From Escherichia coli (lineage in GTDB: Bacteria; Pseudomonadota; Gammaproteobacteria; Enterobacterales; Enterobacteriaceae): a stretch of 64,000 nucleotides of DNA. Position 1 is the stretch's first letter. Each line of letters starts with the position of its first letter. The stretch lies in the NCBI RefSeq assembly GCF_036507355.1, contig NZ_AP027877.1, one strand, 5' to 3'. The translations under genes were made by a program, and so were the position numbers. Positions 17,190 to 19,360 of this stretch are shown in pieces. Below the pieces are notes generated by a model. That model was not told the DNA's origin. It was given only the letters and a program-made list of their open reading frames with translations, and did no database searches.

Positions 17190-18368
17190 ATGACTGCTGT
17201 AAGCCAAACCGAAACACGATCTTCTGCCAATTTTTCGCTCTTCCGCATCGCTTTTGCGGTTTTTCTCACCTACATGACCGTAGGGCTGCCGTTGCCGGTT
17301 ATCCCGCTGTTTGTTCATCATGAACTGGGCTATGGCAATACCATGGTCGGCATTGCCGTCGGGATTCAGTTTCTGGCTACGGTGCTGACGCGTGGCTATG
17401 CCGGGCGACTGGCCGATCAATATGGCGCAAAACGTTCGGCGCTTCAGGGGATGTTAGCTTGTGGTCTGGCTGGCGGCGCGTTGCTGCTGGCGGCGATTTT
17501 GCCTGTCTCCGCACCGTTCAAATTTGCCCTGTTGGTCATCGGGCGTTTGATTCTTGGCTTTGGTGAAAGCCAGTTACTGACAGGCGCTCTGACCTGGGGA
17601 TTAGGCATCGTAGGGCCAAAACACTCTGGCAAAGTGATGTCATGGAATGGAATGGCGATTTACGGTGCCCTCGCTGTTGGTGCTCCGCTTGGCCTGTTGA
17701 TTCATAGCCATTACGGTTTTGCCGCACTGGCGCTCACCACAATGGCATTACCCTTGCTGGCGTGGGCCTGTAACGGCACAGTGCGCAAAGTACCGGCCCT
17801 GGCGGGAGAACGTCCATCGCTGTGGAGCGTTGTCGGGCTTATCTGGAAACCAGGGTTAGGGCTGGCACTACAAGGCGTTGGTTTTGCGGTTATCGGGACT
17901 TTCGTTTCGCTCTACTTTGCCAGCAAAGGATGGGCGATGGCAGGTTTTACTCTTACCGCGTTTGGCGGCGCATTTGTCGTGATGCGCGTCATGTTTGGCT
18001 GGATGCCGGATCGTTTTGGCGGCGTGAAAGTGGCGATCGTCTCTCTGCTTGTAGAAACGGTGGGCTTGTTGCTGCTCTGGCAAGCCCCAGGTGCGTGGGT
18101 CGCATTAGCGGGCGCGGCGTTAACCGGAGCCGGATGTTCGCTTATCTTTCCTGCGCTGGGCGTGGAGGTGGTTAAACGTGTCCCCTCACAAGTTCGCGGC
18201 ACCGCACTGGGCGGTTACGCCGCGTTTCAGGATATCGCCCTCGGCGTCTCCGGGCCGCTTGCGGGAATGCTGGCGACCACGTTTGGTTACTCTTCGGTAT
18301 TTCTTGCCGGGGCGATCTCTGCGGTGCTGGGAATTATTGTCACGATACTGTCATTTCGTCGGGGTTAA
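17190..18368 (+). CDS. yfcJ: MFS-family transporter YfcJ
   Basis: 392 aa multi-helix hydrophobic ORF in conserved position. Confidence 0.88.
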
Positions 18369-19360
18369 CGAACCAGCCAGACCAGCATCAGGATAATCGC
18401 GACTAACAGTATCCACAGCGCGGGACGCGTTGCCATATTTTGCAACGTGTCCATCATCGGTGGAAAAGGATTAAGCAGCGGTTGCATATCACGCGGATCA
18501 ATCCCTTTAACCCGCCGTTGATAAAGCTGATTAAGAATATCCTCGGCCTGGGCAGAAGAAAGCGATGATTGCGCAGAAAGGCCATATTTTTGCTGGATAT
18601 ATGCCGATAACGCCGCCAGTTCACTGGCATCTAAAGGTTGTTTTAGCGTCATCTGTAGTGATTCCAGCGTCGGCGTATTTTGCTGGCTTAGCGTCTGACG
18701 CGCCTGCAGCCAGGTCACCAGATGGTTAAACAGTTTCGCTGGAATTAACTCGCCATCTTTCACCCCGGAAAGTTCCAGCATCGATTGCCAGATCTGTTTG
18801 CTGGGTTCCCCCGTTGCCGCCGCAAGTTTGGTCACCAGCTGTTTGAGCGCATTGTGCTCCGCCGGTAATAGAGGACGATCGGTCGCCTCGCGCTGCTGCG
18901 GTTGCGGAATAACCATCTTCCCTTCCTGCAACAGGGTGAGAATGGTTTTTAATTGCTCCGGTGAGAGCTGATTCAGCGGCGTCTGGCCAAAGTTATGACG
19001 GATATAATCCGTGACCGCCTGACGATTATTCCCCAGACGTAAATACTCCCCTAATTGCGCTAAAAGCTGGCGGGCAGAATGGCTTTTTTGCGCGGCCAGC
19101 AGACGTTGCGCCAGATTATGCTCAGCGGCAGGGAAGTGACGCGAAAGCAGCGGTGAATCTCCCGACAGACCAATATCGTGCCTGATACCCGCCCACAGTT
19201 CTGCTCTTTGCTGTTGCGTCAGTGAGGTCACTTTCGTCATTAAGCTTTCCAGCGAAGTACGTTGCTGACTGGATAAAGGCTGATTGCCCGCGCCAGACGG
19301 CAGGTTATCTCCCTGACCTGGTGGTTGCCCAGGAGGAGGGCCGGAAATAGGTTGTATCAT
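18365..19360 (-). CDS. flk: flagellar regulator Flk (C-terminal membrane anchor)
   Basis: 331 aa ORF, Q/L-rich with C-terminal transmembrane segment; matches recalled Flk. Confidence 0.85.

Follow-up and report, generated by a model that had tools for sequence, protein, structure and literature searches.

A conserved four-base overlap of the convergent yfcJ and flk stop codons in Escherichia coli, probably an ordinary and stable abutment of two genes

Introduction

Bidirectional intrinsic terminators stop transcription from both members of a convergent pair within a short stretch. Convergent genes whose coding sequences overlap by four bases, with the two stop codons tail to tail within CTAA, TTAA, CTAG or TTAG, have been described as a class (Lillo and Krakauer 2007, Biol Direct, PMC2174442). 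The length distribution of convergent overlaps has a discontinuity, a jump at 4 bp, and in prokaryotes convergent overlaps of this length are commoner than any other class. Of the 1890 convergent overlaps in 58 genomes, 1218 measure at least 5 nt, which leaves 672 of 4 bp or less; E. coli was found to have 58 (PMC2174442). A rho-independent terminator for such a pair must fall in the coding sequence of the partner, and one is predicted for only 20% of the E. coli genes in convergent overlaps (PMC2174442).

Two further systems bear on convergent neighbors. Convergent excludons are neighbors whose transcripts overlap at their 3' ends, a concept that implies reciprocal repression; 165 of them have been named in strain MG1655, flk-yfcJ included, with overlapping transcription units of this pair in at least 50% of 58 RNA-seq samples (ExcludonFinder, NAR 2025, PMC12288877, Table 1). 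As a class, excludon pairs have higher synteny and skewed single-cell expression ratios, and validation of the convergent ones as double-stranded RNA by p19 capture was not feasible (PMC12288877). The second system is the suppression of read-through and antisense transcription by Rho, mapped in MG1655 (Adams et al. 2021, PMC7815308).

Here, we describe the junction of yfcJ and flk in a window of 64,000 nucleotides from E. coli (contig NZ_AP027877.1 of assembly GCF_036507355.1). The overlap is of a known kind, and this instance of it is already catalogued (PMC12288877); as a pattern, a 4-bp stop overlap is not unusual. Like the pairs of Lillo and Krakauer, it consists of two convergent reading frames with stops that share a central TA, and nothing essential sets it apart from them; what we add is the occurrence of all four tetramers at one junction across species and, in other genera, of REP-like or hairpin inserts precisely between unchanged gene ends. 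With a probability of roughly 0.85, we regard yfcJ and flk as two genuine convergent genes that abut in an ordinary and evolutionarily stable way, their stops interlocked on a shared TA.

Results

Two Stop Codons Share a Central TA

The sequence at the junction is TCATTTCGTCGGGGTTAACGAACC, in which T18365, T18366, A18367, and A18368 belong to both genes (Table 1). The TAA of yfcJ occupies 18366-18368 on the plus strand, and the stop of flk is the complement of 18365-18367 (TTA, read as TAA), giving an overlap of 4 bp inside the 6-bp palindrome GTTAAC. The central TA of the tetramer is common to both stop codons (5'-NNY TAR-3' on either strand). Base 1 is the third base of the last sense codon of Flk and pairs with the third base of the yfcJ stop; base 4 has the mirror role, as the third base of the last sense codon of YfcJ pairing with the third base of the flk stop. 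Enumeration of stop codons shows that convergent overlaps of 1, 2, or 3 bases are impossible and that only Y-TA-R fits both strands at 4 bases (TTAA, CTAA, TTAG, or CTAG), and 4 bp (YTAR) is the minimum overlap possible for two convergent reading frames. The junction belongs to this YTAR class, with stops interlocked on the shared TA, an overlap of 4 nt, the tetramer TTAA, and two partners that are genuine coding genes on opposite strands and end at their called stops.

A sequence-only reading of the window had described overlapping convergent stops of yfcJ and flk within gTTAAc, and its coordinates and description prove exact against the sequence, the list of open reading frames, and RefSeq annotation; NCBIfam models and RefSeq bear out the two gene names as well. 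The palindromy that it emphasized is incidental: other species do just as well with CTAA, TTAG, or CTAG at this place. The stop codons overlap and leave zero intergenic space, hence no terminator lies between the genes, which the geometry confirms, and the same geometry forces the further point that a transcript reaching either stop must run on into the other gene. Since no terminator can sit between them, full-length mRNAs each carry a tail antisense to the neighbor.

Table 1. Positions of the genes, the shared tetranucleotide, and the RNA features near the junction, numbered from the first base of the window
Feature	Position	Strand	Basis
yfcJ CDS, 392 aa, MFS transporter (YfcJ/YhhS group), membrane	17190..18368	+	ORF list, NF009048, Pfam MFS_1
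Hairpin and T-run, 55-80 nt into yfcJ, terminator-like	17243..17269	+	Consensus scan
First ~100 nt of flk 3' untranslated read-through, antisense to the yfcJ 3' end	18265..18364	-	Composition, fold
Shared tetranucleotide TTAA (YTAR class)	18365..18368	.	ORF list and sequence
flk CDS, 331 aa, flagellar regulator	18365..19360	-	ORF list, NF007987
7-bp stem followed by CCATATTTTG, inside flk, terminator-like	18416-18432	+	Consensus scan
11-bp hairpin (GGACGCGUUGC...GCAACGUGUCC) in yfcJ read-through RNA, within flk codons	18423..18452	+	Folding

Both Genes End Where They Are Called

The overlap would be an artefact of annotation if one of the genes truly ended upstream, and the evidence on the gene ends leaves this next to no chance. 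YfcJ matches the NCBIfam model NF009048 with residues 1-392 on profile positions 1-392 of 392 (704 bits) and also matches Pfam MFS_1, and Flk matches the equivalog NF007987 with residues 2-330 on profile positions 1-338 of 339 (507 bits); both proteins therefore match curated full-length models to their last residues. In 11 diverse Flk sequences, the ends share one terminal alignment column directly after a hydrophobic tail, and the last ~20 residues of Flk are a documented membrane anchor, therefore the final codons up to TTAA are functional. Both C termini align across 80 species, at loci where a spacer separates the genes as well as where they overlap. As far as sequence comparison can tell, an annotation artefact or mis-called gene end is ruled out by the full-length family matches together with these aligned C termini, and we found nothing in its support among the family models, the C-terminal alignments, or RefSeq. 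The sequence-only reading had named an earlier end of either gene as its refutation; family models and C-terminal alignments place both ends where they were called.

The surroundings are those of the E. coli chromosome, with the gene order mnmC, fabB, yfcJ, flk, pdxB, usg, truA, and window positions 13480-26382, which hold the yfcJ/flk region, are in exact register with strain EC1515 (BLAST). RefSeq annotates the identical 4-bp overlap in EC1515, one K-12 derivative, MG1655, and three further strains; in MG1655, flk is at 2437950..2438945 (+) and yfcJ at 2438942..2440120 (-).

The Overlap Is Retained within E. coli and across Many Relatives

A 2.4-kb query found a match with at least 80% coverage in 5423 of the 5426 complete E. 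coli genomes, at 95-100% identity, and a 61-nt query centered on the junction matched 5393 of the 5426 (2024 genomes at 100%, the remainder with one to three mismatches). The variants that we sampled depart from the query at 18353 (a synonymous A/G) or at 18395 and all retain TTAA, and their strains keep the 4-bp overlap in annotation. As judged from these matches, the overlap is fixed in E. coli. In one of the 5426 complete genomes, that of strain E17 (NZ_CM143886.1), yfcJ and the 3' end of flk are deleted, and the flk of this strain is annotated as a pseudogene without the C terminus.

For a wider comparison, one genome per species was scanned with the Flk alignment and both stops were located at each locus, yielding 80 loci from 80 Enterobacteriaceae species. 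Exactly 4 bp of overlap is present at 30 of the 80, in Escherichia species and clades, many Citrobacter, Yokenella, Intestinirhabdus, and others, Salmonella enterica subsp. arizonae and diarizonae among them. A spacer of 18-340 bp separates the genes at 21 loci (Enterobacter, Lelliottia, Leclercia, Cedecea, Buttiauxella, and others), and at 13 they lie at least 700 bp apart (Kosakonia, Phytobacter, and others), the separation being at least 1.5 kb in Kosakonia and Phytobacter. The remaining 16 loci, from various genera, have no yfcJ downstream of flk within a flank of ~2.5 kb in 14 cases and of just 85 and 343 bp, too little to judge, in 2. Neither an overlap of any length other than 4 bp nor a spacer of 0-17 bp occurs among the 80 loci. 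With 30 species-level loci keeping exactly 4 bp, the overlap is a real conserved feature.

The tetramers at the 30 overlapped loci are TTAA in 15, CTAA in 7, TTAG in 6, and CTAG in 2. TGA stops are never seen at these 30 loci and are used by 16 flk and 8 yfcJ genes where the two lie apart. The proteins themselves change little at their ends: Flk closes with ...FWLVx* at every junction type in the 80-species alignment, and the YfcJ ending ...FR[RK]x* is shared by the overlapped class and most other loci (...SFRRG* in E. coli), although the protein is one residue shorter at several and diverges more at a few far-apart ones.

The spacers fall precisely between the two gene ends, and the length of these ends changes little or not at all. 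Eleven of the 21 carry REP-like sequences, which match a REP half-site consensus; such palindromes lie between the gene ends in Enterobacter, Lelliottia, Leclercia, and Pseudenterobacter, as one unit (~40 bp), two units (~70-93 bp), or an array, the 340-bp spacer of Pseudenterobacter holding five REP-like half-sites. Other spacers have a GC-rich hairpin adjoining an A/T run. Because REP-like palindromes and hairpins sit between unchanged gene ends in Enterobacter and its relatives, the overlap itself is dispensable.

Selection on Two C Termini Would Suffice to Hold the Junction

Y-to-Y and R-to-R changes in the tetramer would be silent for both genes, altering only a third codon position in one and swapping TAA and TAG in the other, and it is presumably because of this that all four tetramers occur. 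Neither stop would survive an indel or a change in the central TA; with both gone, YfcJ would be longer by a computed 50 codons and Flk by 25. Given that such changes would strike two genes together, purifying selection on the two C termini would be expected to hold the junction in place, and its persistence would then need no function of the overlap itself. That relatives tolerate REP-like inserts, hairpins, whole genes, or lost adjacency argues in the same direction. Selection for transcript overlap, as opposed to a mutationally locked neutral state, could also have kept the overlap in 30 lineages, and we return to this below.

Hairpins in the yfcJ Read-Through Are Poor Terminator Candidates

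Transcription of yfcJ might end inside flk at an embedded intrinsic terminator, either the 11-bp hairpin or the 7-bp stem with its CCATATTTTG tail, which would limit the transcript overlap to ~70-90 nt. The 7-bp stem is the sole terminator-like site that a terminator consensus scan reports downstream of either stop, its T-rich tail being part of the match, and the 11-bp hairpin is a stable one, present in both the minimum free energy and the centroid structures of a 102-nt region; that 20% of the E. coli genes in such overlaps have a predicted rho-independent terminator (PMC2174442) would lend such a site some precedent. However, the two structures compete, and folding favors the 11-bp hairpin, in whose loop the T-run then falls; no U-tract follows the 11-bp stem. 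The 102-nt yfcJ 3' flank as a whole has z = -1.57 against shuffles and is not significantly more structured than they are.

Conservation and mapped RNA ends argue against the embedded terminator as well. The 11-bp hairpin falls from -19.5 kcal/mol in E. coli to -5.1 in E. albertii, decays likewise in the cryptic Escherichia clades, and is absent in Citrobacter and Salmonella, although all of these keep the overlap. Term-seq of MG1655 under three growth conditions has no 3' end at 24387xx-24390xx (PMC7815308). We therefore rejected the candidate, on a nonsignificant z, a missing trailing U-tract, lack of conservation, and lack of Term-seq support, and consider termination of yfcJ at either structure highly improbable.

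More generally, the scan, the folds, and the species comparison found no GC-rich stem-loop with a U-tract, conserved among relatives, in either neighbor gene. The locus thus differs from one with a bidirectional intrinsic terminator: yfcJ/flk in E. coli leaves no room for it, and neither gene end contains a conserved hairpin flanked by A- and U-tracts. The likeness to that arrangement is found in the spacer-bearing relatives, some of which have the GC-rich hairpin adjoining an A/T run.

Little yfcJ Transcription Reaches the Junction in LB

A different site near the 5' end of yfcJ bears on how much convergent transcription there is. The hairpin and T-run 55-80 nt into the gene, a terminator-like site in the consensus scan, coincides with a published Rho termination region at MG1655 2440043 (-), which corresponds to window position ~17267, ~78 nt into yfcJ, and falls just after the hairpin and T-run (PMC7815308). 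DirectRNA-seq coverage there drops from 236 upstream to 15 downstream (over 800 nt) without bicyclomycin (BCM) and from 266 to 98 with BCM, with a Rho score of 5.8 and p = 4e-12 (PMC7815308, Supplementary file 2). These data suggest premature termination of yfcJ, or of read-through from fabB, in LB. With coverage falling from 236 to 15 so near the 5' end, little yfcJ-sense transcription passes ~80 nt into the gene, and the junction therefore receives little convergent transcription in LB.

Composition beyond the flk Stop Points to Rho

RNA beyond the flk stop is rich in C and unstructured. Untranslated RNA that is C-rich, G-poor, and weakly structured over ~80 nt past a stop codon is what Rho is expected to act on. 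In the flk 3' flank, C outnumbers G by a ratio of 1.47 over the first 80 nt and of 1.5-1.9 between 240 and 580 nt downstream; the window-wide 90th and 95th percentiles of C/G are 1.50 and 1.69. The minus strand of 18263-18364 has a folding energy of -10.5 kcal/mol (z = +1.50), and its fold is no more stable than those of 193 of 200 shuffles; this folding gave no hairpin in the flank. Such a C-rich, unstructured flank suggests Rho termination and makes the region a candidate for Rho loading. Beyond the yfcJ stop, the corresponding ratio is 1.26 in the first 80 nt and then ~1, with no marked bias of C over G. We infer a role of Rho with more confidence for flk than for yfcJ, because it is the flk 3' flank that is C-rich and unstructured. 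Once ribosomes have left at the stop, Rho would most likely end the read-through in a diffuse manner, as the base composition suggests.

The locus compares with the mapped cases of Rho suppression in its C-rich, unstructured RNA beyond the flk stop and in having a mapped Rho region in the same gene pair, at the 5' end of yfcJ; it differs in that none is mapped at the junction (PMC7815308), where we assign Rho by composition. In MG1655, Term-seq under three conditions has no 3' end at the junction and none for flk, and the mapped Rho regions include none antisense to yfcJ or flk and only the one at the 5' end of yfcJ (PMC7815308). Expression at the junction is possibly too low for such regions to have been mapped.

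An Rfam scan of the whole window placed no known RNA at the junction. The only match in the window at the gathering threshold is the nuoG RNA motif (RF01748) at 57094-57136 (+), with 50.3 bits.

Transcript Overlap Is Reported and Selected Mutual Repression Is Unlikely

The transcripts of flk and yfcJ are reported to overlap at their 3' ends, as in convergent excludons, and the pair is listed as one (PMC12288877). Reciprocal repression, which the concept implies, would be hypothetical for this pair, and the overlap here is forced by geometry instead of arising from a long 3' untranslated region or a terminator embedded in the neighbor. The listing confirms transcript overlap, not regulation; it adds no evidence of regulation because overlapping coding sequences meet the published criterion automatically once both genes are transcribed to their ends.

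A functional excludon would be a different matter: the overlap would have been selected for mutual repression, by collision of RNA polymerases or by RNase III cleavage of the duplex, and the expression of a flagellar regulator and a transporter would be mutually exclusive. Its case is built on the place of flk-yfcJ in the published E. coli excludome, with overlap in at least half of the 58 RNA-seq samples, on the synteny and skewed single-cell ratios of excludon pairs as a class (PMC12288877), and on the persistence of the overlap in 30 species-level lineages. Against it, double-stranded RNA validation was not feasible for convergent pairs (PMC12288877), and yfcJ-sense coverage is very low past ~80 nt in LB (PMC7815308). 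The species comparison also speaks against it, with the genes split by REP-like elements or hairpins in Enterobacter, Lelliottia, and Leclercia, lying at least 1.5 kb apart in Kosakonia and Phytobacter, and with 16 loci that lack yfcJ within ~2.5 kb (two of them with too little flank to judge). We found no known functional link between the Flk and YfcJ proteins. A functional excludon is accordingly quite unlikely.

A still more specific proposal is that the forced overlap acts as a switch, with flk transcription damping yfcJ or the reverse, that it has been kept for this reason in Escherichia, Salmonella, and Citrobacter, and that REP-like or hairpin inserts have uncoupled the genes in Enterobacter and its relatives; we judge it very improbable. 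The sequence-only reading had suggested antisense interference, and for this we found no evidence specific to flk and yfcJ, the single-cell statistics of the excludon paper being given for the class (PMC12288877). Any interference between the two is probably small, because both have low transcription and that of yfcJ mostly stops near the 5' end of the gene in LB. The ordinary abutment of two genuine genes remains our preferred reading of the junction.

The published list also holds dcrB-yhhS as a convergent excludon (PMC12288877, Table 1). Because yhhS belongs to the MFS family NF003477, which YfcJ also matches strongly, two related transporters, yhhS and yfcJ, each lie in a convergent pair with overlapping transcripts.

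Other Convergent Junctions and Strain-Specific DNA in the Window

Transfer of the EC1515 annotation with BLAST gives six convergent junctions in the window, yfcJ/flk included. At the five others, the genes are separated by 167, 120, 47, 32, and 58 bp, and the window has an insertion in the 120-bp spacer. Two of these pairs, smrB-yfcO and yfcH-rpnB, are also in the excludon list (PMC12288877).

Several segments distinguish the window from EC1515. About 1.28 kb of extra DNA at ~12203-13479 is absent from EC1515 and apparently from MG1655; its reading frame at 12308..13288 (-) encodes a 326-aa IS110-family "RNA-guided transposase" (NF033542, E = 4.4e-76), and the insertion lies in the spacer of the convergent pair yfcL-mnmC, where it interrupts a REP element. 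In its size and REP target, we take this ~1.28-kb IS110-family insertion to recall IS621. The yfc fimbrial operon region at ~3443-6061 is strongly unlike EC1515, which has ~5 kb in its place; only a 280-bp stretch of it aligns, at 86% identity, and the strain of the window therefore appears to have a shortened or replaced fimbrial cluster. The dedD-cvpA intergenic region differs by an indel of ~270 bp (window ~26300-26382 versus EC1515 26296-26569).

Discussion

The overall importance of the yfcJ/flk overlap is little. Were reciprocal repression true, it would link the control of flagellar secretion to a transporter; nothing that we found points that way, and the excludon list already records the possibility (PMC12288877). 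The pair is a clean textbook example of the smallest overlap possible between genes that face each other. It illustrates how a junction can be stable over long evolutionary times without doing anything, the silent changes being only those that keep both stops, and how larger changes come as discrete elements, inserted exactly at the boundary of the two genes.
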